Part shown: piece by piece, positions 12,903 through 38,960 of the stretch
Layout of the letters: every line of letters starts with the position of its first letter
Position numbering within the stretch: position 1 is the first letter of the stretch
Origin: Chloroflexota bacterium
GTDB taxonomy: Bacteria > Chloroflexota > Anaerolineae > Aggregatilineales > J027
Reading direction: 5' to 3'
Assembly (NCBI GenBank): GCA_003697365.1
Contig: RFGP01000056.1
Span: 463 to 64,462 of the forward strand
Length of the DNA: 64,000 nt
Made by a program: the position numbers and the translations under genes
The notes under the pieces: model-generated
The model's input: the letters and a program-made list of their open reading frames with translations, nothing else
Told to the model about the DNA's origin: nothing
Databases searched by the model: none

Positions 12903-13754
12903 ATGATGCAGCGTTATGATTTTAATCCAGCCAATGACGATAAACCAATTTTGCACTTAGCTCATGCGAATGGCTTTCCGCCGCAGGTTTATCACGACCT
13001 TATAGGATACTTTAGCGAAGAATATCATGCTATTTGCTTCCCTGCACGCCCTTTGTGGGAAAATCCCCCAGACTACCAAACATTTGATAATTGGCACATC
13101 ATGGCAGATGATTTGATCGCTGCTTTTGATCAAGAAGGCCTTAAAAATGTAGTGGGAATAGGTCATAGCATGGGAGGCACAGCCACACTATTAGCAGCGC
13201 TTAAGCGTCCTGACTTATTTTCAGCAATAATAGTATTAGACCCAGTTCTTTTTCCGCGAACACTCATTCGGTTGATGACCGTTATACCGCATTGGCTTCC
13301 TCACCCAGAAATCCCACTTGTGAAAGTTGCCTTGCGCCGCAAAAGAGCTTGGGCAACCCCTGAAGAAGCATTTGAACGCTTCCGTTCCCGCACATTATTC
13401 AAGCACTGGTCAGATGAGACAATTTGGCGATATATAGAAGGAATTACTCAACCCGATAGTATTAACGGCGGTATCACGCTACGTTATACACCAGAATGGG
13501 AAGCTCAAATTTACGCAACATCGATGTATTCCCTACGGGGATGGTGGAAATGGCTTAAACAGATACAGGTGCCCACAGCAGCCATTCAAGGTGGAAACAC
13601 TGACACATTCTTGCCTGCAGCAGTTTCTTTATGGCGTAAGACACGCCCTGATTTTCCAGTGGAAGTGTTAGAAGGGCAAGGGCACCTTTTCCCTATTGAT
13701 GCCCCTGCAGAGACTGCCCAAATGATCAAAGCACTACTCAAACGCCTAAAGTGA
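12903..13754 (+). CDS. alpha/beta hydrolase
   Basis: Oxyanion 'HANGF', nucleophile elbow 'GIGHSMGG', C-terminal 'GQGHLFP' (catalytic His context). Confidence 0.75.
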   Translation: MMQRYDFNPANDDKPILHLAHANGFPPQVYHDLIGYFSEEYHAICFPARPLWENPPDYQTFDNWHIMADDLIAAFDQEGLKNVVGIGHSMGGTATLLAALKRPDLFSAIIVLDPVLFPRTLIRLMTVIPHWLPHPEIPLVKVALRRKRAWATPEEAFERFRSRTLFKHWSDETIWRYIEGITQPDSINGGITLRYTPEWEAQIYATSMYSLRGWWKWLKQIQVPTAAIQGGNTDTFLPAAVSLWRKTRPDFPVEVLEGQGHLFPIDAPAETAQMIKALLKRLK

Positions 13755-16496
13755 TTCTGTCGCATAGGGGATCGTAAAAATAAAACGACTCCCCTTGCCA
13801 TATTCACTTTCAACCCATAATTTACCCCCCATCATCTCGACTAAGCGTCTTGAAATTGCCAAGCCTAAGCCTGTTCCTCCAAATTGTCTGGTGGTGCTAC
13901 CATCAGCTTGTCGAAATTCGTCAAAAATTATTTCTTGATGTTCGGGCTTGATGCCAATACCTGTATCGATAACGGTTACAATAGCGCATTGTTGCTCGTC
14001 ATCACGCTCAACGTTCACCGTCACACTACCTTCATCCGTAAATTTAACAGCATTGCTGAGTAGATTATTGATAATTTGACGCAAACGTAATCTATCTGCA
14101 TTCACCAAAACGGTGTGTGGTGGGTGTTCTAAAGTTAACAGCAAGTGCTTTTGATAGGCCTGAGCCTCAATCAACTGCAAGCACCCTGTAATTTCTTCTC
14201 GCAAATCCAAAGGTTGCAATGAAAGTTCCATACGCCCCGCATCAATTTTACTGAGATCGAGTAGATCATCTATTAAAGCAAGTAAATTACGGCCACTAGT
14301 CCGAATACGCTGTAGGCGATCTTGCTGACGTTCATTTAATTCTCCATACATACCTGTGAGCAACGTTTCAGAAAATCCCAAAATACTATTCATGGGTGTG
14401 CGTAATTCATGAGACATTTTGGCTAAAAACTCGCTTTTTAGACGATTGGCTTCTTCTAATTCTTTTGTGCGCTGTTGAAGTTCCTCAAAAAGTTGTGCAT
14501 TACGAATGCTAGTCGCAATTTGGCCAGCCATCGCGCTTACAAATTCAATCTCAGCTTCTGTAAAGTAGTGTGTTTTTTGTTTTGTATCTAACCCTAAAGA
14601 CCCGATAAACTGGTTCTGTACAATTAATGGAACAACCAACAAAGATTTAATCCCTAAACGGGATAATGCTTCGTAGTTGGGTTCTAGTATATCTTGCGCA
14701 GCGGCAAGATCATTCACTACTACCGATTGATGTGTATCGATCATTTGCTCATGCAAAGCGTAATCTTGCAATTGTAGTCGTGTGCCAATTGCGCCAATAA
14801 GTGGATATTCAGCTACAACAGTCCCTCTCTGACCATCCGCATCAAACAAAACAATGCCCGCATGATCAACTTCAGCGATAGTCTCCACTACGCTTTGGCA
14901 AGCTGAAATAAGTACCTGTTTAGTTGCTAGTTCGCTGCTAACCCGTTTGGCAATTTCTGACAAACCGCGAAACAAGCGTAAACGTATTAAATAATCAAAG
15001 TTTCTTAAAGCCGAAGCGATATGGCTACCTATTGCCGTTAAAAGACGTGCTTCATCGCTGCCAAATTTAGCGCGATTACGTGCTACAAGAATCACACCCA
15101 AAGGATCATCTTGAACACGTAAAGGAGCAACCAAGATATTTTCCAAATGAATATATTGCATCAACGCCACATCAGGCCCAGTCGAGAGATCGCCAGCGTT
15201 AATATATTGGGGATGCCCACTATTAAAAGCCAAAGCTAATAAGCTACGTGCTGCGTTCGCTGCAAACTGCGATTCAAACAGTTGAGCATCCACTCCAAAT
15301 CCTGTTTTCATTGGAATAAGTACATTATCTTGACGATCATAGGTGAAGATGACGATTGCTTCAGCAGAAAGCATTTCCTTTGTCAGGTTCAGAACATTTT
15401 CGATAGCCTCTTGAAAATCCATATGACGTGATGCAATTTCAGAGAGCTTAAGTAAAGATTGGCTCTCATTGAGATGATTACGCATTTCAATCAATAAACG
15501 CTGACTGTTAATCCCTAAAGCCACCTGATCTAAAGGAAATTGCAAATATTGAATACGCCTAGCAGTAAAAGATTGATGACGATAACGCAAAAGCAAAACG
15601 CCACCAATCACCTTATTACGAGCAGCGAGTGGCATTATGAGTAAACTAAATGGTAATCGTCCTAGTCCATCAATAGGCAACTCAGAATCACTATTAACCC
15701 CATTCAAAATAATTGGCTTTTGTGTGTTATGCATTAAGTTTAAAAGTTGGGTTGATATTAATTCTACATTTAAGTTGGGTTGATATTGTTCTTTATGCCA
15801 AGCAGCAATCCAATGTTCCGAGATGGACTCCCCTTCTACAACCATCACACAAGCATCAACATCCGCATACACTGCAATTATTTGCACTAATTGGGGTAGC
15901 TGTTCACGAATGGAACGTTCACCTGTTGCAATCCGCGATATTTCGTTGCGTAATAAAATATCGGAATGTGCATCTTGAAGCTCAAAATAATTAGCACGTA
16001 AACGGTTATAAAGACGTGAAGTATCGATCACAAGTGCAGCCTGATCAGCTAGCGCTTGCAAAATAGCAAGATGATCTTCGTTATAAGCGTTTTGCTTTCG
16101 ACTTTCGATGCTAAGCACCCCCAACAAACGTCGCCCATGTATAATTGGCACAGCTAATTCTGAAACAATATCAGGATCAAGCATTCGATAGCGCAAGTCT
16201 TGCCGAACATCAGGGATGTTAAGCGGCTCTTGAGACTGAGCTACGGTGCCAATAATTCCTTCTCCTAATCGTATAACTGGCATCTTTTCCTGATAGTATT
16301 CGGCATTGATACCTGCATAGAAAGGAATTAAAACCTCTGCGTCAGAATCCCACAAAGCCAAAATACTAACATCAAAAGGCAACAATCGTTGTACACTGCG
16401 CAATAATGTTGATAATAATTGTTGTGGCTCAATTGGGGTTTGCGTTTGTTCTTGTGCTTGAGTTTGCTCAATCATATTCATAAACCTAAAAATCAT
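13746..16496 (-). CDS. multi-GAF sensor histidine kinase
   Basis: Several GAF-like blocks, H-box 'MSHELRTPMNSILGF', 'LLSNAVKFT', 'DTGIGI', 'GTGLGLAISRRLVEMMGG'. 3' end overlaps the convergent hydrolase gene by 9 nt. Confidence 0.85.
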   Translation of the reverse strand: MIFRFMNMIEQTQAQEQTQTPIEPQQLLSTLLRSVQRLLPFDVSILALWDSDAEVLIPFYAGINAEYYQEKMPVIRLGEGIIGTVAQSQEPLNIPDVRQDLRYRMLDPDIVSELAVPIIHGRRLLGVLSIESRKQNAYNEDHLAILQALADQAALVIDTSRLYNRLRANYFELQDAHSDILLRNEISRIATGERSIREQLPQLVQIIAVYADVDACVMVVEGESISEHWIAAWHKEQYQPNLNVELISTQLLNLMHNTQKPIILNGVNSDSELPIDGLGRLPFSLLIMPLAARNKVIGGVLLLRYRHQSFTARRIQYLQFPLDQVALGINSQRLLIEMRNHLNESQSLLKLSEIASRHMDFQEAIENVLNLTKEMLSAEAIVIFTYDRQDNVLIPMKTGFGVDAQLFESQFAANAARSLLALAFNSGHPQYINAGDLSTGPDVALMQYIHLENILVAPLRVQDDPLGVILVARNRAKFGSDEARLLTAIGSHIASALRNFDYLIRLRLFRGLSEIAKRVSSELATKQVLISACQSVVETIAEVDHAGIVLFDADGQRGTVVAEYPLIGAIGTRLQLQDYALHEQMIDTHQSVVVNDLAAAQDILEPNYEALSRLGIKSLLVVPLIVQNQFIGSLGLDTKQKTHYFTEAEIEFVSAMAGQIATSIRNAQLFEELQQRTKELEEANRLKSEFLAKMSHELRTPMNSILGFSETLLTGMYGELNERQQDRLQRIRTSGRNLLALIDDLLDLSKIDAGRMELSLQPLDLREEITGCLQLIEAQAYQKHLLLTLEHPPHTVLVNADRLRLRQIINNLLSNAVKFTDEGSVTVNVERDDEQQCAIVTVIDTGIGIKPEHQEIIFDEFRQADGSTTRQFGGTGLGLAISRRLVEMMGGKLWVESEYGKGSRFIFTIPYATESL

Positions 16497-18618: not shown

Positions 18619-19860
18619 TTAATGTATGGTAAAAAGCAAAACCGTTGTTGTTCCCAAACTTATGCGTGAATAATGTCGCAGCGGAAATGGTGAAAGTGGT
18701 TGAAGTGTTGTTGAATTCACCACTGTATGAAGCGTACTCCCTTGATCAATAATGAAGAAATCACCACTATCATCTTGAATAATATGCGCATGATTGCGTG
18801 AAACGTTACGATCCCCATTAAAGTTCAAATCGCGACTTAAACGGCCAATAGTAAATGGTGATTTCGTAATGGTTACTTCAGTCCCTACCATGCTCTCATC
18901 ACGTGATTGTTCTACCCGTAAATGCCCTGTTGGGCGCTTCACTGAGCCGGGCGAAAAAGTCTCGGCATCATCTAATTCTGAGGATGGAGCAGCATTTGTT
19001 GAGTATCCCGACATACTCGCTTCAGCAAAAGCCGTTGCAAATTCACTCGCCGTTGGATAACGCTCTTTGGGGTCTTTGGCCAGCGCCCGATGAATAACTG
19101 CAGACACTTTTGAGGGTATATCACGTTGTAACAAGTGCACATCTGGCGGGCGAACTTCGCAATGTTGTTGCATTAACTCGTAAGGGCTGCTGTCACTATC
19201 AAAGGGTAACTGCCCTGTTAGCAAGAAAAAAATAAGTATTCCTAAAGCGTATTGATCTGTGGCTGGTGAAAGCGGTTCATCGCGCCATTGTTCTGGTGCC
19301 ATATAAGCAGGTGTTCCCAAAATCATCCCTGCCCCAGTAAGTTTGCTAAGCGAACTGTCAAGTAACTTTACAAGCCCAAAATCAACTAGAAACGCATGAC
19401 CAGAGTCATCAAACATAACATTACTAGGTTTAATATCCCGATGAATAACATTGCGTGCATGAGCATAGTCAAGAGCACCAGCAATTTGTTGTAATAGCCG
19501 CGTGATCTCTTGTAAACTAGCACGAGGCCGCTTACCTAATAAAACTTGTTCGATATGATCAGACAAACTGCCCCCTGATAACAAACGCATAACAACATAG
19601 TTCATTCCATTTTCTGTACCATAGTCATAAATTGGGACAATATGGGGGTGTTCTAAAGAAGCCGATATTTCGGCTTCGCGATGAAACCGCTTCACTTGTT
19701 CCGGGCGATTTGCTTGAGAGTCTGAAAGAATTTTTACAGCGACATATCTCTTCAAACGGGGTTGAAACGCTCGATAAACAACCCCCATGCCACCCTTACC
19801 CAAAAATTCTTCTAGTTCATACTGACCAAGCGTACTACCCACGAGATTTTGAAAAGCCAT
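18619..19860 (-). CDS. Ser/Thr protein kinase with C-terminal FHA domain
   Basis: 'GKGGMGVVYRA', 'VAVKIL', 'HRDIKPSNV', 'DFG', 'APE'. C-terminal FHA: 'FTIGR', 'SRNHAHI'. Confidence 0.85.
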   Translation of the reverse strand: MAFQNLVGSTLGQYELEEFLGKGGMGVVYRAFQPRLKRYVAVKILSDSQANRPEQVKRFHREAEISASLEHPHIVPIYDYGTENGMNYVVMRLLSGGSLSDHIEQVLLGKRPRASLQEITRLLQQIAGALDYAHARNVIHRDIKPSNVMFDDSGHAFLVDFGLVKLLDSSLSKLTGAGMILGTPAYMAPEQWRDEPLSPATDQYALGILIFFLLTGQLPFDSDSSPYELMQQHCEVRPPDVHLLQRDIPSKVSAVIHRALAKDPKERYPTASEFATAFAEASMSGYSTNAAPSSELDDAETFSPGSVKRPTGHLRVEQSRDESMVGTEVTITKSPFTIGRLSRDLNFNGDRNVSRNHAHIIQDDSGDFFIIDQGSTLHTVVNSTTLQPLSPFPLRHYSRISLGTTTVLLFTIH

Positions 19861-19921
19861 TATTTCTAACCAGCCTCAATGCTTAAATGTTGTCTTTAGA
19901 AGTGTACAAAAACTTACCCTG

Positions 19922-20389
19922 TTATGGCAACTCTATAGAATGCATTTCTAGCCAAGGGATGCCATATCCAAAAAGTGCGCGCCCAGCAGTTGCTATTGCA
20001 TGAGTTTGTTGGGAGACATCTTGAAATTCCCACCATGCATCATCATTAGGCAACAGCTTAGCATCAAAAACATGCCACATAACCCATGATAACGTCTTTT
20101 CATCTTGATGTTCATATAAAGTTTTTGCACGTGCTATACGCCCTTGATTACGTAAAAGAGTTATTTGAAAACGAGACACAGGGCTTTGTCGAAATGCTAA
20201 AAGTTGCCATTCAACAAACCCATACACATCTTCTCCTAAATTTTCTAGCGGTTTTTGAAAACGAACAAGTCCACGCTGTTGCTGTAATTGATCTTGTTCT
20301 AAGTTATACCCTGCTGCATTTAATGCCTGACCAACAATAGTTAATATCATTTGCATAAAACGTCCTGTTTCTTCTATATTATAAAACAT
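19922..20389 (-). CDS. hypothetical protein
   Basis: 155-aa ORF between the kinase and the divergent receiver gene. No motif I recognise. Confidence 0.4.
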   Translation of the reverse strand: MFYNIEETGRFMQMILTIVGQALNAAGYNLEQDQLQQQRGLVRFQKPLENLGEDVYGFVEWQLLAFRQSPVSRFQITLLRNQGRIARAKTLYEHQDEKTLSWVMWHVFDAKLLPNDDAWWEFQDVSQQTHAIATAGRALFGYGIPWLEMHSIELP

Positions 20390-20498
20390 CTTGAACTCCT
20401 TAATCTGTATTGTTTAATAGTTGCAAGATAAAGCCTGTCAGTGCTACACTCAATAATGCATTCATGAACTGTTCACTATAACAAGGACGGAGCCCTTA

Positions 20499-20882
20499 AT
20501 GAAGCGCATTTTAGTGGTTGACGATGAAATGGGGGCACGTACCCTCATTGGTATTATGCTAGAACGTGGCGGTTTCGAGGTACTTAAGGCCCAAAATGGC
20601 CGAGAGGCACTTGAAATGTTAGATACAATTGAACCACCGGACATGTTTATTTTAGATGTCATGATGCCAGAAATTGATGGTATTCAATTGTGCCGTATGT
20701 TACGTGAGCGTGATGACACTAAAGCCATACCGATTCTAATCTTATCAGCACGTGGAGACGCTAAAAGTGTAATTCAAGGTATGGAGGCAGGCGCAACTGA
20801 TTATATATTAAAGCCGATCTTCCACCATAATTTAGTCGATAAAGTTCGCAGTTTGCTTAATATGGGAGCAACAGCCGAATAG
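20499..20882 (+). CDS. stand-alone response-regulator receiver (CheY-like)
   Basis: 'ILVVDDE', phospho-acceptor context 'FILDVMMPEIDG', 'ILSA', 'LKP'. Confidence 0.85.
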   Translation: MKRILVVDDEMGARTLIGIMLERGGFEVLKAQNGREALEMLDTIEPPDMFILDVMMPEIDGIQLCRMLRERDDTKAIPILILSARGDAKSVIQGMEAGATDYILKPIFHHNLVDKVRSLLNMGATAE

Positions 20883-20895
20883 GATACGCCCTTAA

Positions 20896-21906
20896 ATGGC
20901 TAAAATTGAAGTTCGTGTGATTGATAGTGCAGGTAATCAAACTTATTTACCGCTTCCCAACGATAGGCCATTAAATGAGCTTATTCCGGCTATTGTGACT
21001 TTGCTCGATCTAAACACTGCTTTGTCATATCGCATTTTTGCTCCACGCTTTCAGCGGGTTTTGATCGGCACACAGAGCTTATATGCCAATGGCATTCAAG
21101 ATAGCGATACTATTCGGCTTGTTACCCCTCCCCAAACTACACAAGTTGAACTCGAACTTCTTGATGAACCTAGTCCCGGCGCACGTCTAGCACTTCCTCA
21201 ACAAAACATCGTTAAAATCGGGCGCGGTTCTATCAATGACATTGTTATTGCGCACCCTTCCATTAGCCGTGAACATGGCGAGTTTATTTGGCAAGATGGT
21301 ATACATATCTTCCGTGATCTAAACTCAGCCAATGGCAGCATGATTAATAATCAAGTTGTATCAGAACCTACGCCGATTAGTCTTGGCTCAATTTTAACCT
21401 TAGGGGATAGTGTGCGCCTTGTTTATCAAGAAATATCTCCCCACTACGATATTGGTGTTGAGGAAACCAATGCTCAAATAGGTATGGATAGTAGCACAAC
21501 CACCAAACTAAACCCTTTGCCTAGTGGGTTAGTGTTTTTGAGCTATCACCCCAGTGATATGGTTTTAGCCAAGCGCATTGTGCAAGTGTTACGAGAGGCA
21601 AATTATCACGTGTTTTGGGCGGAAGAGATTCCACCGGGCAGCAATTTTCAAGAAGCGTTACGAAACGCTTTACGCTTATCTGATGCCCTAGTAGCAATCT
21701 TAACACCAGCAGCACTTGAAAACAGCAACCTCATCGATCAATGGCATGAGTTCTTCTTAATGCGCCGCCCAATGGTATCACTGGTCTATCAAAAATCAGA
21801 AGACTTGCCACATATTTTCTTAGAACATCCTGTCGTAGAATTCAAAGGAGATGTCAACCGTCTTGCCCAAGAAACAGTTGACACCTTAAAAAATATTATG
21901 TCTTAG
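20896..21906 (+). CDS. beta-grasp (YukD/ubiquitin-like) - FHA - TIR domain protein
   Basis: Residues 1-78 are beta-grasp-like ('KIEVRVIDSAGNQTYLPLPNDRPLNELIPAIV...DSDTIRLV'). FHA core: G109-R110, S123-R-E-H126, N145-G146. C-terminal residues ~211-336 are TIR_2-like ('VFLSYHPSD', 'VAILTPAALENSNLIDQWHEF'), with Glu285 where TIR catalytic Glu sits. Confidence 0.7.
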   Translation: MAKIEVRVIDSAGNQTYLPLPNDRPLNELIPAIVTLLDLNTALSYRIFAPRFQRVLIGTQSLYANGIQDSDTIRLVTPPQTTQVELELLDEPSPGARLALPQQNIVKIGRGSINDIVIAHPSISREHGEFIWQDGIHIFRDLNSANGSMINNQVVSEPTPISLGSILTLGDSVRLVYQEISPHYDIGVEETNAQIGMDSSTTTKLNPLPSGLVFLSYHPSDMVLAKRIVQVLREANYHVFWAEEIPPGSNFQEALRNALRLSDALVAILTPAALENSNLIDQWHEFFLMRRPMVSLVYQKSEDLPHIFLEHPVVEFKGDVNRLAQETVDTLKNIMS

Positions 21907-23364: not shown

Positions 23365-24393
23365 TCAGGATAACCATAAAATGACAGCGGTTGCGTCATC
23401 ATGTAATTTGAAGCGTGGGTATTGTTCATGGGCACTGTCGGTTCGTTCGGCTTGTCGCAACGCAGCAATATATTCTAGTAGCCCATCTTGGCGAATGCGC
23501 TGCCACATTTGCCGCACACGCTTATCATAGTCTTGCTCGGTTTCATGCAAAGTTGCCGGCCACCAAAAACCATCACTAATCACCATCACAGCTTCAGCAT
23601 CTTGAATCATCGCAATACCGCTCTTAATGTAGTCTTCCAGCTCTGGTAATCCGTTCACAACCCCGACACCGCGTTCAGGAACAGTTTTTCCTTGCTCATC
23701 AACATAATTATGATAAATACGATGATCACGATCCAAAGCTCGTATAAAAGGATCATCAAGAGCATCTTTCATGCTTGTTTGTCGCTTTAAGGCCGTTTGG
23801 CTAGCAAGCGCCAATGCAGATTCATAATCCATTAGTGGTTGTTTGTGGCGCGTAGGAACTTCTACATGTCCATCATCGTAGCAAATTAATAGCGCAGTAT
23901 CTCCAGCATGAGCGTAACGCAGTAAACCCACATCAGTATCAATAGTCACCACAGTTAATACAGCAGCAGGTAAAAATAATCGAAACTTACGCGGGTCGTT
24001 TAACAACTCTTGGCTAGTAGGCTGTATTTGTTTGATCTGCTCTACATCAAAAATGCCGGGAGCTACTTCATCCAACAATTGTCGCAAAGCATCATTAGCA
24101 CGCAAAATTAACTCGCGTGGATCAATATCGTCATTATGCCCTTGCCCCAACATTGCTAAAATTGCGTCTCGTGTAACTGTAGCAGCAAGCGATGCGGGGG
24201 TGATATTGTTGCGCTGTGTGGTTAAATAATGTTGCAATGGTGCAAAGTTCGCTACAGAAGTTGCGCCATCTATTGCGGCTAAAACATAGCGCGGTTGTCC
24301 ATCATCACGTTGATATGCAACAAAAGCATCTTCATTAGGGCGTTCTGAAACACCTTGACTAATTGCTTGAAGCATCATTTGTCTTATCCTCAC
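23365..24393 (-). CDS. PP2C-family (PP2C_2-like) Ser/Thr phosphatase
   Basis: 'RPNEDAF', 'AAIDGATS', 'HAGDTALL', 'VISDGFW', 'HDDATAVIL'. GTG start overlaps the upstream stop (GTGA). Confidence 0.65.
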   Translation of the reverse strand: MRIRQMMLQAISQGVSERPNEDAFVAYQRDDGQPRYVLAAIDGATSVANFAPLQHYLTTQRNNITPASLAATVTRDAILAMLGQGHNDDIDPRELILRANDALRQLLDEVAPGIFDVEQIKQIQPTSQELLNDPRKFRLFLPAAVLTVVTIDTDVGLLRYAHAGDTALLICYDDGHVEVPTRHKQPLMDYESALALASQTALKRQTSMKDALDDPFIRALDRDHRIYHNYVDEQGKTVPERGVGVVNGLPELEDYIKSGIAMIQDAEAVMVISDGFWWPATLHETEQDYDKRVRQMWQRIRQDGLLEYIAALRQAERTDSAHEQYPRFKLHDDATAVILWLS

Positions 24394-25289
24394 TCGTCTT
24401 CAAAAGGCCAAGTGGGTAAGGGTTCTCTATGCATAATCCATTCTCTAGGAATTCCCGATACCCCAACAGCACAAGCAACTATACCACCCACCATTGCGCA
24501 AGTGGTATCTATATCTCCTGCGGCAAGTGCTGTATGCCATAAAGCAGCTTCAAAGTCCTTCAAATAATGTGCAGACATCCATAACACTAGCGGCACCGTA
24601 TCTTGGGCTGATACCAAACTACCATTACCAAGTATTGCGACAAGTTCTTTTAAAGATGTTTCTTTGGGCAATGTTCGGGCAATTTCAACTTTATTTTTTA
24701 CCGTGCTCTCTGGAATATGTGATGAGATCATGCTTAAAAAAGCATCACTTGTTAATGCGTCATGTTGATGTTGCCAAGCAATAGCAGCACCAACTGCGAC
24801 GGCAATCGCTCCAGCAATTCCTTCTGGATGAGTATGAGTAATAACCGATGAACGTTGTGCATTTTCAATGAGTGCATCCATATCATCCGCAAAAAAAGCA
24901 CCTAAAGGTGCTATACGCATAGCAGCACCGTTCCCATAAGAGCCCTTTCCGCCAAAAAGCTGTGGCGATATTTCTTGCCAGTGATACCCACTTTGAATAG
25001 CACTTAATAAACGAGCGGCCCCCATGCCATAACCGCGCCCCCAATCAAAATGCTTAGCGAAACTTTGGGCCAAGTCGGTTTGCACAATTTCGCCATATTT
25101 ACGCAAATTCTCATAGATTGACAGCGCCATATTGGTATCATCTGTCCAAGCCCAAACGCCATCAGGCACAATGCGATTCGTGACAATATGCTCCAAATTT
25201 CGCGCTTGGCTTGCAAGTTTCTCGCCAAAGCTATCGCCAACAGATAATCCCTCTAAAGCAATTCGCGCACGTGACAGCCGCTCATCCAT
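24390..25289 (-). CDS. ADP-ribosylglycohydrolase family protein
   Basis: 'GLSVGDSFG', 'WTDDTNMAL', 'AAGDIDTTCAMVGG' (binuclear-metal ligand motifs of the ARH/DraG family). ATG shares one base with the upstream stop (TAATG). Confidence 0.8.
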   Translation of the reverse strand: MDERLSRARIALEGLSVGDSFGEKLASQARNLEHIVTNRIVPDGVWAWTDDTNMALSIYENLRKYGEIVQTDLAQSFAKHFDWGRGYGMGAARLLSAIQSGYHWQEISPQLFGGKGSYGNGAAMRIAPLGAFFADDMDALIENAQRSSVITHTHPEGIAGAIAVAVGAAIAWQHQHDALTSDAFLSMISSHIPESTVKNKVEIARTLPKETSLKELVAILGNGSLVSAQDTVPLVLWMSAHYLKDFEAALWHTALAAGDIDTTCAMVGGIVACAVGVSGIPREWIMHREPLPTWPFEDE

Positions 25290-26656
25290 TAAAAATTCTC
25301 CACTTCGGGATAAACTTCTCGCAGCCATGCTACTAGCTGCTCTTTATAAGCTAGAGCTTCTGCTTCCGTATAGGCTTCAAAGCGCAAGCTCAAAACAGGT
25401 TCAGTGCCAGAAGGTCGCAAAAGCCCCCAACCATTCGGGAAAATAACCCTCAAACCATCAACATCAACGCAAGGTAAATTTCCTATTCGTTCTTTCACAC
25501 CAGCAATGACAGCGCTTTTGCGTTCCTCTGGGCAATAAGGACGATACTCAGGAGTTGTGAATAGATGAGGAAGTTCAGCAACTTGTGTAGATAAGGGCTT
25601 TCCACGTTCAGCAAGTAATTCTACAATTCGAGCAGCAGCATATATTCCATCGTCAAATCCAAAATATCGATCCGCAAAGAACATATGCCCGCTGCTCTCG
25701 CCGCCTAAAACTGCCCCTTCGCGTTGCATCTTATCTTTTATGCGCGCATGACCAGATTGCCACAGAATCGGTGTGCCACCATATTTTTTTACAACATCAA
25801 AAACAGCTTGGCTGCTCAAAACATCGCCAACAAATATGCCACCACCATTACGCGGAATAATATCTGTTGCGAGCCACGCCATGATCTTATCCGCAGAAAT
25901 TAGCTCGCCGTTTTCATCCACCACACCTACCCGATCAGCATCTCCATCGAAGGCTAGACCTATATCAGCGCCTACTTCACGAACTTTAGCTGCCAATTCA
26001 GCAACATTTGCTGCTTTTTCAGGGTTAGGGTGATGATTCGGAAAAGTACCATCAGGTTCACAGTAAAGCTCAATAACTTCGTGCCCCATACGGCGCAAAA
26101 CTATGGGGGCATAAGGGCCACCCATGCCATTACCAGCATCCACCACAATTTTTAACTTCGGTGTAAAACGATATGCCGAGCCTAAATAGCTCAAGTAATT
26201 TTGGCTAACATCAAGATATTTATAGGCATTGGCAGGCGCGCTCTCAAAGTCATCATCTTCGATAATAGCGCGTAGTGTTTGAATCTCTTCCCCATATATG
26301 ACTCGGCGACCGACCACCATTTTAAAGCCATTATATTCTTTTCCTAAATGGCTTGCCGTGATCATAATACCTGCTACTCCCATGCGTAACGCAGCCCAAT
26401 ATAAAACAGGTGTTGAGACCATGCCAATATCATAAGTATCAACACCAGCTGTTTGTAGGCCACTTGTCAACATGCTTCGCAAATCGTCAGAACTAGTACG
26501 CATATCGTAGCCAACTAAAACGCGATCTTGTCGATACTGACGCTTGATATAAGTTCCAAACGCACGCCCGATATACATAGCATCATGAGCTGTAAGTTCC
26601 TCTCCCACTTTGCCACGAATATCATACGTTTTGAAAATACGAGGGTTAATGTCCAT
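25289..26656 (-). CDS. phosphomannomutase/phosphoglucomutase family protein (variant active-site loop)
   Basis: 'IFKTYDIRG', 'TASHLGKEYNGFK' (family consensus SHNP), 'FDGDADR', 'GGESSGH', 'RPSGTEP'. ATG lies 1 nt after the upstream stop. Confidence 0.8.
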   Translation of the reverse strand: MDINPRIFKTYDIRGKVGEELTAHDAMYIGRAFGTYIKRQYRQDRVLVGYDMRTSSDDLRSMLTSGLQTAGVDTYDIGMVSTPVLYWAALRMGVAGIMITASHLGKEYNGFKMVVGRRVIYGEEIQTLRAIIEDDDFESAPANAYKYLDVSQNYLSYLGSAYRFTPKLKIVVDAGNGMGGPYAPIVLRRMGHEVIELYCEPDGTFPNHHPNPEKAANVAELAAKVREVGADIGLAFDGDADRVGVVDENGELISADKIMAWLATDIIPRNGGGIFVGDVLSSQAVFDVVKKYGGTPILWQSGHARIKDKMQREGAVLGGESSGHMFFADRYFGFDDGIYAAARIVELLAERGKPLSTQVAELPHLFTTPEYRPYCPEERKSAVIAGVKERIGNLPCVDVDGLRVIFPNGWGLLRPSGTEPVLSLRFEAYTEAEALAYKEQLVAWLREVYPEVENF

Positions 26657-32276: not shown

Positions 32277-33536
32277 CTACTTTTGTACGTTTAAGTTATT
32301 CATCTCACTCAAATCTTCTTCGGGTTTGCCAATAGGCAGCAAAACACGGCACGTTGTGCCTAGCATTTTTTGCTCGTCGCGGCCGGGGCTTTCTAAGATA
32401 ATTTTACCACCATGTGCATCAATAATCCCCTTAGAGATTGCTAAACCTAATCCGGGGCCACCACCACGAAAAGCTGTTTTACTAGAGGAATGCAGGCTTA
32501 CATTGTTCCCACCTTGATAAAATTTCTCAAATACATAGGGAATTTGATCAGGTTCAATGCCAATACCTCGATCCGCAATAATAATTTCAAACGCATGACC
32601 TAAATCCACATCCATCACTTCTCGCGAAATAATATCGATCACAGAGTTATCAGGTGAGTATTTAATGGCATTGGAAAGCAATTGATAAAATACTTTACTC
32701 AATAAAACCGGATCGCCGTTAATGAAGGGAACTGTTGGGGTTTTCTGATGGTGCTGGCGAATAGTAATATTGCGCTCTTGGAGTGCTTTTTCAAAAACGT
32801 GCAATGTCTCTGAAAAAATCATGCGAGGCAAAACAGGCACAAATGCAACTTGTAGGGTTTGGCTATCGATCTTGCTTACATCCAACATGCTATTAACTAT
32901 TTCAAGCATTCTTTCGGTACCTTCGCTCATGCCATTTACAATACGTGGCAAGTCAGGATCGTTTTGCACAAGTGGATGCATAGCCAAAACATCGCGATAA
33001 CCACGAATAATCGTAATTGGTGTACGCAATTCATGTGCTGCAACTTCGATAAAATCGAGTTTGGCGCGATCTAGGCGTTGTAAAGCCTCATAAGCTGCTC
33101 GCATTTCTTCTAATTGCAAACGATCGTTAACCCGTAAGCGGTCAATCGTTTCGCGCACAATATCGAGTGCCAATGTGGGATTCGCAGCCAATATATCCAT
33201 CAAGGCTTGACGATCAATCTCTAGCACTGTTGTTGCTGTTAAAGTGCGTACTGTTGCAACACGCGGGCCATTCACAATAATGGCCATCTCACCAAAAAAT
33301 TCACCCTTCCCTAAGGTGCGTAAAAGACGCTCGCGTTCTGTTCCTGCAACGTCAAACTGCTTCAGAATTTCAACTGTTCCTTCTTGAATAAGATAAAAAG
33401 TATCCTCATAAGCACCTTCTTGGCAAAGAATCGTACCCGGTGGGTACGTATGCGAATGTGACAGTTTCAATAGTTGTTCAACTGCTTCTGAAGACAAGTT
33501 TGGAAAAGCTTTGCGTATTAAATCTGTTAATTCCAT
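32277..33536 (-). CDS. cyclic-nucleotide-binding domain histidine kinase
   Basis: cNMP-binding 'FFGEMAII...RVATVRT', H-box 'AAHELRTPITIIRGY', 'LLSNAIKYS', 'DRGIGI', 'GPGLGLAISKGIIDAHGG'. ATG 33536 preferred over GTG 33551. Confidence 0.8.
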   Translation of the reverse strand: MELTDLIRKAFPNLSSEAVEQLLKLSHSHTYPPGTILCQEGAYEDTFYLIQEGTVEILKQFDVAGTERERLLRTLGKGEFFGEMAIIVNGPRVATVRTLTATTVLEIDRQALMDILAANPTLALDIVRETIDRLRVNDRLQLEEMRAAYEALQRLDRAKLDFIEVAAHELRTPITIIRGYRDVLAMHPLVQNDPDLPRIVNGMSEGTERMLEIVNSMLDVSKIDSQTLQVAFVPVLPRMIFSETLHVFEKALQERNITIRQHHQKTPTVPFINGDPVLLSKVFYQLLSNAIKYSPDNSVIDIISREVMDVDLGHAFEIIIADRGIGIEPDQIPYVFEKFYQGGNNVSLHSSSKTAFRGGGPGLGLAISKGIIDAHGGKIILESPGRDEQKMLGTTCRVLLPIGKPEEDLSEMNNLNVQK

Positions 33537-33643
33537 AAAATAGTTCCACACTTACTATAATTAGGCGGAATTGTTCTCAAGAATCATTTTAATCATGAGA
33601 TTATCGTTCTGACAACATTATTATCTTATTATTGCGGTAATTA

Positions 33644-37017: not shown

Positions 37018-37884
37018 CTACTCCTCTTCATCTAGTGAAGAGGTGTTTGTATCTACTGAGAACCAGCGCTTTGTTTCAGGATCAATTTTCCCTTGTAAAG
37101 CAGAGTGAAAATCAGCAGCAAAAGCTGCAAGATCAGGATAGGCTAGCTCCTTACGATGTGTCAACCCACGTAATAATACTGAGTGAACTAGCGGAGATAA
37201 GCCCTCAGCAGAGGGTTGTTCAACCTTACGAACTTCAGAACGTGGATCGCTAAAAGGCAAACGGCCACCTGTCAAAAGTTGATAGATAAAAGTTGCCAAT
37301 GCAAATATATCAGCAGCCAGCTCTGGTGTAGAGTTAAAGAGACGATCGGTAAAGATATAATGTTCTTGAAGTAATGTTGCCTGTCGAGGAACAAGACCAA
37401 AATCACGAATATGTGCCATAGCTAAATCAGTAATAGTAGGATTACCACCACGATCTACAAGAATATTGGTGGGTTTCAAGCTACCATGTGCAACTTCTTG
37501 ATCATGTAAAAATTGTAGTCCTTCAATAACAGTGTCAATAATCCTAAGATGATGTTTTGGAGGTATGGGCTTTCCTTGAGCGAAAAAATCGCCAATTGAA
37601 GCAGCAGCTAATGGCATCACCACTGCCAGCATCCCACCATCAATATCTGTATCAATAACTTCTAAAATTGGGTGCAATATAGGATGTTGAATACTCGCAG
37701 CAAAATCCAATATTTCAGCAGCAGCCCCCCGATCCATTGCTGACTGAACATCAATTTTATTGAGAACTTTTATGGCAACTTGCTCACTGGTTTGGATAGA
37801 TTGGGCAACAAACACTGTTCCCATATCTCCCTCGCCCAATTTTTGCCTTAGTTGATACTGTCCAATTTGCATAGATAGCTCCAT
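37018..37884 (-). CDS. protein-kinase-fold pseudokinase
   Basis: G-loop 'GEGDMGTV' and 'VAIKVL' are present. The catalytic loop reads 'HGSLKPTN' (HRD Asp replaced by Ser) and DFG reads 'DLA'. ATG lies 2 nt after the FemAB stop (or TTG overlapping it). Confidence 0.65.
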   Translation of the reverse strand: MELSMQIGQYQLRQKLGEGDMGTVFVAQSIQTSEQVAIKVLNKIDVQSAMDRGAAAEILDFAASIQHPILHPILEVIDTDIDGGMLAVVMPLAAASIGDFFAQGKPIPPKHHLRIIDTVIEGLQFLHDQEVAHGSLKPTNILVDRGGNPTITDLAMAHIRDFGLVPRQATLLQEHYIFTDRLFNSTPELAADIFALATFIYQLLTGGRLPFSDPRSEVRKVEQPSAEGLSPLVHSVLLRGLTHRKELAYPDLAAFAADFHSALQGKIDPETKRWFSVDTNTSSLDEEE

Positions 37885-37886
37885 TC

Positions 37887-38960
37887 TCAAGATCGCCAGC
37901 GCAAATATGCACGATATAAATTATAGATCAATGGGTTGTAAACATAGTCCCAAGCGCCAACGGTACGCACTATGCGTCCCCCCCAGCCACGCTTGAATCG
38001 ATAAACCCCCCACAAACCATCATGGCGATTCTCAAATTCAGCTTCTAGAATATGCGGTTCAACATCTGGTATACCCACCATATCGTAGGTATGAGCTCCT
38101 TGTTCGCGTGCCCACAAAATTGCTGCCCACTGTACACCAAAAGAAGCCATACGTTGGCGCTCTTCATTGCTACTTGCACCATAAACATACCAACTCTGCG
38201 TTCCTAATGCAAAAACGAATACACCAGCTAAATCGTGTTCCAGCCCTTGTGCATCTGTATAACTTGCCATCAATAATGTTGCTTTTACAGGACTTTGAGC
38301 CGTAATAAATAAGTCATAAACACGCTCATAATAACGAGGTGTATGTACCCCAAAATCTTGACGCTCTGAAGTCATTGCTAGCAAATGGTTAAAATTAGCC
38401 ACATCCTGACGTGAGCCATGACGAACAGTTACATCATGTTTCTCGCTTTTGCGAATATTGCGGCGTGTACCTTGGTTCATTCGTGCAAGAATGACGGATT
38501 CATCAATAGAATCTCCATCATCTGTTTGTCCATTGATGTCAATAAGAATAGTGCGGGGAGGTTGTACGGTTTGTGGGCTAAGACGAAATCCAAGTGCTTG
38601 TAAAGTTTGTATTGGAACATCATAGCCGGGTTCTATTTTCAGAAAAGCAGCTTTTCTTTGACGTGTCGCTAGATGAATGGCCTTCATCAACGCTTGCACT
38701 TGAAGAGTATCTTGCCAATCAACAAGTGGCCCAAGAGGTATGTAGGCTAATTGGCTGAATTTAGCAACTAGTGGTCGGTATAAGATTTGAGCCCCAGCAA
38801 CAAGCTGGTCATGCTTCACAATACCAACACGCTGGACATCCCAACCAAACTCTGCTTTCAGCTTTCCCCAAGCACTAACTTGAAAGAAGCTAGCACGCAA
38901 ATGAGATGCCACGAAGGCATCCCATTCTTCATCATTAATCTCAAGGCAAATGGTATACAT
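37887..38960 (-). CDS. FemAB-family peptidoglycan interpeptide-bridge aminoacyltransferase
   Basis: 'WDAFV..H..ASFFQVSAWGKLKAEFGW', 'RRNIRKSEK', 'YVYGASS', 'GVYRFKRGWGG' are typical FemX/FemAB blocks. Confidence 0.8.
   Translation of the reverse strand: MYTICLEINDEEWDAFVASHLRASFFQVSAWGKLKAEFGWDVQRVGIVKHDQLVAGAQILYRPLVAKFSQLAYIPLGPLVDWQDTLQVQALMKAIHLATRQRKAAFLKIEPGYDVPIQTLQALGFRLSPQTVQPPRTILIDINGQTDDGDSIDESVILARMNQGTRRNIRKSEKHDVTVRHGSRQDVANFNHLLAMTSERQDFGVHTPRYYERVYDLFITAQSPVKATLLMASYTDAQGLEHDLAGVFVFALGTQSWYVYGASSNEERQRMASFGVQWAAILWAREQGAHTYDMVGIPDVEPHILEAEFENRHDGLWGVYRFKRGWGGRIVRTVGAWDYVYNPLIYNLYRAYLRWRS

Follow-up and report, generated by a model that had tools for sequence, protein, structure and literature searches.

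Must a bacterial TIR domain be an enzyme? Bacterial TIR domains are now mostly read as NAD+-consuming immune enzymes, and the question is raised by a gene in a 64,000-nucleotide stretch of contig RFGP01000056.1 from a Chloroflexota bacterium (assembly GCA_003697365.1; the whole stretch is called the window below). This gene encodes a protein of 336 amino acids (aa) in which a ubiquitin-like, an FHA and a TIR domain follow one another, and a first-pass annotation had credited the TIR domain with a retained catalytic glutamate, and hence with a potential NAD+-cleaving (NADase) or ADP-ribose (ADPR)-signal-producing activity gated by phosphothreonine (pThr). We come to a different reading: because a glutamine replaces the essential glutamate, this TIR domain is more likely a signalling adaptor than an NADase. 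What we propose, with about as much belief as doubt, is a core-genome, pThr-dependent signalling adaptor of Anaerolineae which uses a non-catalytic TIR domain as an interaction module, and not an NADase effector.

A three-domain protein of the Anaerolineae

The open reading frame (ORF) at 20896..21906 on the plus strand, and its length of 336 aa, were borne out by the ORF list, and the encoded protein shows 100% identity with a 'hypothetical protein' of a Phototrophicales bacterium metagenome-assembled genome. In the NCBI record the gene carries the locus tag CUN55_06590 and its 155-aa neighbour the tag CUN55_12255, yet the two lie 0.5 kb apart in the window; the window may be another assembly of the same organism than the one recorded there.

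Conservation of the architecture in related genomes, which the first-pass annotation had suggested checking, was found in 29 distinct full-length orthologs, of which 21 served for the Pfam scans and the AlphaFold2 model. Full-length copies occur in 13 species-representative genomes, and the family is restricted to Anaerolineae-type Chloroflexota. Gene order was compared across 18 orthologous loci (L001-L018); the search for neighbouring TIR or ubiquitin-like genes covered the 64 kb window and the ±8 kb flanks of the orthologs, and the Pfam scan of the window covered 37 ORFs, from 1822 up to 42007.

The three-domain architecture is genuine, since Pfam matches, AlphaFold2 models and Foldseek matches all bear it out. 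The model of the whole protein, with a mean predicted local distance difference test score (pLDDT) of 82.6, lays out a ββαββ β-grasp (aa 3-76), an FHA β-sandwich (84-179), a disordered linker (183-208) and an alternating β/α TIR domain (211-335); as modelled, the protein is a rigid unit of ubiquitin-like and FHA domains, joined through a flexible linker to a single TIR domain. No FHA–TIR family, with or without the ubiquitin-like domain, turned up in the searchable literature, and our search found no case in which the ubiquitin-like–FHA module is joined to another output domain, the matches being tandem-FHA proteins without a ubiquitin-like domain.

A glutamine at the catalytic position

That the C-terminal domain belongs to the TIR_2 type, as first proposed, is well founded. 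Pfam TIR_2 (PF13676) matches aa 213-306 at 55.5 bits (E 1e-14; gathering score 28) and finds the domain in 21/21 orthologs scanned, and the fold model agrees: βA (211-216), αA, βB (237-240), αB, βC (264-269), αC (277-288) and βD (293-297), followed by a further strand (313-315) and a C-terminal helix (320-335), alternate in flavodoxin-like β/α order at a pLDDT of about 80-90.

The active site is another matter. When nothing but the TIR part was used in an exhaustive profile search, 22,530 relatives came up at E≤1e-3, and column statistics were drawn from 438 TIR stretches of the 150 best representatives, aligned to the family profile with a hidden Markov model (HMM). The canonical motif of these relatives is S(395/438)-x-[Y220/W37]-C(245)-x-x-E(381)-[ILV]-x-x-A(349), where the window protein reads N276-S-N278-L-I-D-Q282-W-H-E285-F286. 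Q282 thus stands in the column that holds E in 381/438 related stretches; the column of E285 is occupied by Y, L, H or F in the relatives and by E in only 17/438. The register is anchored on either side by βC ('ILT/S-P') and βD ('K-[RP]-I-I-P'), and it is free of indels between them in 427/438 stretches. Set against 120 canonical stretches that had been aligned by MAFFT, the family was matched by hhalign at 99.9% probability, which paired TPAALENSNLIDQW with SPDSVTSEYCQHEL, including 'NSNLIDQW' opposite 'SEYCQHEL', and a HMMER alignment to the solved NADase Cat1 (9mud) gave the same register as hhalign and the HMM-based alignment.

The earlier inference of a retained glutamate fails, therefore, because it rested on a mis-registered residue: E285 is indeed present in 'DQWHEF', but the catalytic position is that of Q282. 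Conservation of the glutamate among orthologs had been named as a check on that inference, and position 285 proved to be E in only 13/29, the other 16/29 carrying R, D, H, Q, A, T, S or F. Position 282, on the other hand, is Q in 25 orthologs, H in three and E in one (P0019). The serine and the aromatic residue of the motif (the latter Y/W in 257/438 relatives) are also lost, being N276 and N278 in the window protein, and both positions vary among orthologs. Sequence matches of the TIR profile to AbTir, PdTIR and BtpA end just before αC, whereas Hydra TRR2 and MyD88, both of the scaffold type, align along nearly the full domain and are the best full-length sequence matches in the PDB. AbTIR, BdTIR and TcpO need their catalytic glutamate, and a Glu→Gln change at the catalytic site (ThsB E85Q) serves as a catalytically dead control (PMC10022894). 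On these alignments, the canonical catalytic glutamate is very probably absent from this TIR domain.

Could the protein nevertheless cleave NAD+ or make an ADPR signal, with FHA–pThr contacts as its gate and with E285 as a shifted acid or Q282 engaged in some unusual chemistry? The solid TIR_2 match would fit, as would a BB-loop and a βA serine that are both kept, the place of E285 one αC turn past Q282 in those 13 orthologs, the glutamate of P0019 and the Glu-bearing TIRs among the closest relatives. Such an enzyme would, however, have to work with Q or H at the Glu position in nearly all orthologs and with a variable remnant of the motif's serine and aromatic, and it would have to tolerate the replacement of E285 in more than half of them despite strong purifying selection on the domain. 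It would also share its E→Q exchange with an engineered dead mutant (PMC10022894), have no conserved ADPR-type effector or sensor nearby, and lack an ADP-ribosylglycohydrolase (ARH) in most lineages. We consider this distinctly unlikely.

A constrained domain, not a decaying one

A TIR domain that has lost its glutamate might be in decay. It is not: ratios of nonsynonymous to synonymous substitution rates (dN/dS), taken from comparisons with unsaturated synonymous sites, were 0.094, 0.064 and 0.033 for the TIR domain, next to 0.009-0.055 for the FHA and 0.024-0.049 for the ubiquitin-like domain. The TIR domain is under strong purifying selection, and we conclude that it is not decaying because these ratios are low, the BB-loop is kept, the αC surface is conserved, and so is a motif just upstream of the domain. 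The BB-loop, which is a main TIR:TIR contact element, reads E244-I-P-P-G248, with E244 and P246 invariant and G248 nearly so in the 29 orthologs. In place of the catalytic motif the family has an αC surface of its own, D/E-Q-W-[HN]-x-F…R-[KR]-P, made up of Q282, W283 (27/29), F286 (29/29, where relatives have Ala), R290 and P292.

This surface invites another thought, namely that the degenerate TIR domain is a ligand sensor, binding NAD+, ADPR-type or sugar-nucleotide ligands without turnover and signalling through the FHA domain and the receiver encoded next to it. An E→Q active site is like a substrate trap, the remodelled αC surface is highly conserved (W283, F286, R290), and in most loci the adjacent operon (PGM, PMM, NTP_transferase) is one for sugar-nucleotide synthesis. 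Yet neither the serine nor the aromatic of the canonical αC motif is kept, both positions being variable, the pocket may be filled by the bulky side chains of W283 and F286, which stand in place of small or aliphatic ones, and we know of no precedent for a sensor TIR. A sensor role seems to us very unlikely.

An intact FHA domain and an invariant threonine

The first-pass annotation was right to call the FHA core canonical. Pfam FHA (PF00498) matches aa 106-170 at 58 bits (E 1e-15; gathering score 20.7), the GR (G109-R110), SxxH (S124-H127) and NG (N146-G147) elements are all present, and the GRG, SRxH and [NG]SxNG motifs are kept in 29/29 orthologs. Its closest relatives by sequence and by fold are GarA, OdhI and FhaA; Foldseek, in keeping with the 11-strand β-sandwich of FHA domains, found GarA/OdhI at E 1e-9, and the target-normalised template modelling (TM) scores of the best GarA, OdhI and FhaA matches are 0.79-0.92. 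With all phosphothreonine-binding residues present, the domain is predicted to be an intact pThr reader.

Just upstream of the TIR domain, inside an otherwise unconserved linker, lies the motif [DS]S-x3-T203-x-L-[NST]-P-L-P-x-G. Mean pairwise identity is 0.69 within the motif (aa 203-212) and 0.17 in the linker, and T203 (codon 21502-21504) is invariant in 29/29 orthologs; this residue is a candidate phospho-acceptor.

A ubiquitin-like domain coupled to the FHA domain

For the N-terminal domain, the annotation had proposed a YukD- or ubiquitin-like β-grasp, of which the fold stands and the family name does not quite. Modelled alone, the domain reached a pLDDT of 90.4, and a Foldseek search of the PDB returned SUMO and ubiquitin at TM 0.70-0.79, with the ubiquitin-like domain of EccD (7npt) at rank 41. 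In the window protein, Pfam YukD (PF08817) covers aa 11-75 and reaches 23.5 bits where the gathering score is 27; among the orthologs scanned, 15/21 match it at E<0.01, the best of them at 7.7e-7. By profile and by model, 'ubiquitin-like β-grasp' is a solid label and 'YukD' a weak family label.

YukD-like ubiquitin-like domains and FHA domains are hallmarks of the type VIIb secretion system (T7SSb). Might the protein then be an accessory of a machine of this type? No gene of a type VII secretion system (T7SS), be it an EssC/FtsK-type ATPase, WXG100, EssB or EccD, was found among the 37 scanned ORFs or in the Pfam listings of L001–L005, and we rejected the reading on that account; SUMO and ubiquitin are, moreover, better fold matches than the ubiquitin-like domains of T7SS. 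Although the subthreshold YukD match recurs in most orthologs scanned, the EccD domain is among the fold matches, and YukD touches FHA domains in the T7SSb core complex (PMC12637312), a T7SS-like accessory role is extremely improbable. The same complex has something else to offer: in the T7SSb core of B. subtilis, free YukD docks onto the FHA domains of YukB and rigidifies them (PMC12637312), which provides a precedent for a ubiquitin-like domain that stabilises an FHA domain.

The genomic neighbourhood

Table 1. Features of the locus; positions are those of the window
Feature	Position	Strand	Details
Ubiquitin-like–FHA–TIR protein gene	20896..21906	+	336 aa; ATG start; stop TAG 21904-21906; from the ORF list
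Ubiquitin-like β-grasp domain	20896..21129	+	aa 1-78; ββαββ; AlphaFold2 pLDDT 90; YukD-like at subthreshold level
FHA domain	21145..21435	+	aa 84-180; intact predicted pThr-binding set G109, R110, S124, H127, N146
Disordered linker	21436..21525	+	aa 181-210; pLDDT <50 for aa 183-208
TIR_2 domain	21526..21903	+	aa 211-336; degenerate active-site motif
Q282	21739-21741	+	At the catalytic-Glu position
E285	21748-21750	+	In 'DQWHEF', one helical turn after Q282; variable
CheY-like single-domain receiver	20499..20882	+	127 aa; Pfam Response_reg E 4e-29; ends 13 nt upstream of the three-domain gene
155-aa orphan (p155)	19922..20389	-	Divergent from the receiver and three-domain genes; frequent neighbour
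Hanks-type Ser/Thr kinase with C-terminal FHA	18619..19860	-	Pfam Pkinase E 1e-51, FHA E 5e-12
342-aa conserved orphan	23365-24393	-	Between PGM and ARH/PMM genes
ADP-ribosylglycohydrolase (ARH)	24390-25328	-	Pfam E 6e-53; inside the PGM–PMM–NTP-transferase sugar-nucleotide operon
916-aa histidine kinase	13746-16496	-	L001 counterpart rich in GAF domains
cNMP-binding histidine kinase	32277-33551	-	
FemAB-family peptidyltransferase gene with a protein-kinase-domain ORF (290 aa)	37018-38960	-	The kinase ORF follows the peptidyltransferase gene directly and overlaps it

No Thoeris-type effector partner is adjacent, as had been noted at first: neither the window nor the 18 orthologous loci hold a SIR2/SLOG, Macro or transmembrane effector of this kind as a neighbour. 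The suggestion that the protein, if active, belongs to a different wiring also held, for the partner conserved beside it is a CheY-like receiver instead of a Thoeris effector. In 18/18 loci the gene of this receiver immediately precedes that of the three-domain protein on the same strand, and it is the invariant partner gene (Table 1). Identity across loci is 61-94% for the receiver against 42-79% for its partner, and the receiver has the residues of the acidic pocket, the acceptor Asp, the Ser/Thr and the Lys (D8, D9, D53, S83, K105). The two genes have nearly identical start contexts, gagcccttaATG (20486-20501) and acgcccttaaATG (20883-20898), which could be a shared translation-initiation signal or the remnant of a duplication.

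On the other strand, and divergent from the receiver and three-domain genes across a 109-nt spacer, runs an operon of p155 and the kinase (18619-20389), a scan for promoters and terminators in the divergent intergenic region being uninformative. The orphan p155 is present in 11/18 loci, falls into 14 lineage-restricted clusters, all unannotated, and has no match in Pfam, NCBIfam, PADLOC or the PDB and no annotated homolog. Downstream of it, in the window and in 7/18 loci (L001, L002, L006-L009, L018), lies the gene of the Hanks-type kinase, whose catalytic motifs (VAVK40, HRD140, DFG160, APE188) are in place and which is a candidate writer of the pThr mark. Both flanking histidine kinases, for their part, are syntenic in L001 and are possible cognate kinases of the orphan receiver. 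A further kinase gene stands beside a cell-wall gene, at 37018-38960.

Downstream, on the opposite strand, follows an operon of PGM, the 342-aa orphan, ARH in some genomes, PMM and an NTP-transferase, and genes of this sugar-nucleotide operon (PGM, PMM, NTP_transferase) lie near the three-domain gene in most loci. We tried the ARH, two genes downstream, as a partner for a TIR product and rejected it, given that it sits in a convergent sugar-nucleotide operon and is absent in L003-L006, L008 and L010-L018. It is present in the window, in L001/L007 and in L002/L009 (three lineages), and is missing from the same operon in L005, L008, L010-L015 and L018; the ARH is not a conserved partner, because only the window and two other lineages carry it. 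The 342-aa protein, for its part, has invariant motifs (E21-D22, D42-G-A-T45, H162-A-G-D165, S273-D-G275, D332-D-A-T335) which resemble the metal-binding signatures of PP2C and SpoIIE. We rejected its assignment as a PP2C phosphatase and left it as a lead, since its 22 bits with Pfam SpoIIE fall short of the gathering score (25), and the PDB yielded no sequence relative, not even when a profile was used. Should the protein prove to be a phosphatase, it might act as eraser in the neighbouring kinase/FHA circuit.

A place in a defence system was likewise considered and rejected: PADLOC gave only weak partial TIR matches, and the context is that of the core chromosome. The ThsB profile scored 18 bits and ThcB4 24 against 220, far under the cut-off, and PD-T4-6 matches of the kinase look like generic Hanks-kinase similarity, not a defence assignment. 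Around the locus, the scanned ORFs of the window are those of an ordinary core chromosome, such as Dus, an ABC transporter, glycosyltransferases, MutS2, FemAB and histidine kinases, the GC content of the gene equals that of the rest of the window, and no mobile-element or defence-island genes were seen among the scanned ORFs.

Relatives and known systems

Where do the nearest relatives of this TIR domain occur? Of the 150 nearest representatives, 145 hold two to seven TIR stretches, often together with WD40 repeats, and the closest (P0059, P0062 and others) are giants in which 5-7 TIR_2 domains stand in tandem, with WD40 repeats besides. Single repeats in these giants have Q, A, Y or T at the Glu column beside Glu-bearing repeats, a pattern in the alignment which suggests that they are mixed arrays of catalytic and non-catalytic TIR domains. 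Links to Ser/Thr signalling are sporadic among the relatives: P0184 is a Hanks kinase–TIR_2 fusion (492 aa), P0174 has the order TIR–TIR–FHA–TIR (596 aa), and P0106 contains an FHA domain. P0174 and P0184 resemble the window protein in combining TIR_2 with Ser/Thr phospho-signalling domains, and one TIR repeat of P0174 has a similar 'DQ·WSHF' helix, but their architectures are others, without a ubiquitin-like domain and with Glu-bearing TIR repeats.

Perhaps, then, the Glu-less TIR domain acts on such proteins, as a regulatory subunit (a nucleator, a cap or an inhibitor) of catalytic TIR proteins encoded elsewhere in the genome, for example the multi-TIR giants, which are common in these bacteria. 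That some repeats of those 5-7×TIR relatives have Q, A or Y in the Glu column, beside Glu-bearing repeats, would be in keeping with this, and so would the retained BB-loop and the kinase–TIR and TIR–TIR–FHA–TIR fusions. However, neither a catalytic TIR nor any other TIR or ubiquitin-like ORF was found in the 64 kb window or within ±8 kb at the 18 orthologous loci, and we hold this arrangement to be unlikely. Were it true, a TIR NADase would come under Ser/Thr-kinase and two-component control.

Set beside bacterial TIR_2 NADases (AbTir, PdTIR, BtpA, ThsB, Cat1 and Cap12/TIR-SAVED), the protein shares the family, the flavodoxin-like β/α order, the βA 'SY' motif and the BB-loop 'E-I-P-P-G'. It differs from them in having Q282 for the catalytic glutamate and in the loss of S-x-[YW]-C, and also in its single TIR domain, the want of an effector or sensor partner, and vertical inheritance in core-genome synteny instead of a defence island. 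Thoeris, for comparison, pairs the ThsB TIR with a ThsA-type effector, and here no effector gene is adjacent. With the animal scaffold TIRs (MyD88, TLR/TRR) it has in common that a catalytic glutamate is missing and the BB-loop kept, and an assembly-module role of that kind is what we propose for it; its nearest relatives by profile search are, by contrast, bacterial Glu-bearing multi-TIR proteins, and it has neither a death domain nor a receptor context.

Its FHA domain places it closest to the actinobacterial adaptors GarA/OdhI, FhaA and FhaB/FipA, with intact pThr residues and a Hanks-type kinase nearby, and, as in GarA with its ETTS switch, a conserved Thr lies in a disordered segment beside the FHA domain. 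Unlike those adaptors, it has an N-terminal ubiquitin-like and a C-terminal TIR domain, its candidate Thr comes after the FHA domain in the chain, and its partner is a two-component receiver. YukD/EsaB, and the YukD–YukB(FHA) pair of T7SSb, are similar in the β-grasp, in the weak similarity to the YukD profile and in the coupling of a ubiquitin-like to an FHA domain; the window protein departs from them in that its ubiquitin-like domain is fused and not free, its Pfam score lies under the threshold, and the scanned ORFs provide no T7SS gene context.

A possible signalling circuit

How might an adaptor of this kind work? We picture a Hanks-type kinase, probably the neighbouring one, that would write a pThr mark, whether on its own chain, on that of a client or at T203 of the linker. 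The FHA domain would read this mark in the manner of GarA/OdhI/FhaA-type adaptors, and the reading could drive recruitment or head-to-tail self-association, whereupon the non-catalytic TIR domain would act as a protein–protein assembly module, like TIRs of the MyD88/TLR type. The phosphorylatable receiver (D53) may tie the complex to a histidine-kinase input. The output would probably be the regulation of a housekeeping process, for which synteny alone hints at cell-envelope or sugar-nucleotide metabolism.

Several points weigh against the adaptor reading. E285 lies on the same αC helix in the window protein and 12 other orthologs, and might replace the glutamate as the acid in that subclade. 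The βA serine (S216) is retained, and in active TIRs this residue adjoins the catalytic glutamate. T203 stands in a T-x-L-[NST] context, unlike the classic FHA preference for a hydrophobic residue at pT+3, and could be a structural residue. Finally, the synteny, kinase included, may partly reflect genome relatedness and common descent.

A bolder version of the proposed adaptor would have the Glu-less TIR domain polymerised by FHA–pThr contacts, running from the kinase through T203 to an FHA domain in trans, and the protein would be a MyD88-like assembly adaptor at work in everyday bacterial phospho-signalling. Hanks-kinase and two-component (CheY-like) inputs would meet in it, and it might, in addition, act as nucleator or cap for catalytic multi-TIR proteins whose genes lie elsewhere in the genome. 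We regard this as unlikely.

Implications

For those who scan genomes, the case of E285 is a warning: the 'retained Glu' of a TIR domain has to be placed by alignment register, and not by proximity in the sequence. TIR_2 domains, FHA adaptors and scaffold TIRs are known kinds; what appears to be new here, as far as the sequences tell, is a conserved and natural E→Q TIR domain tied to two phospho-signalling systems. The family stands as a counter-example to the view of bacterial TIR domains as NAD+-consuming immune enzymes, being vertically inherited, part of the core genome, strongly constrained, and endowed with a natural Glu→Gln TIR domain that is linked to both pThr and two-component signalling. 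If the adaptor reading is true, this family would offer a tractable case of TIR domains that assemble but do not catalyse, and the scaffold-type function of TIR domains would be no animal invention.

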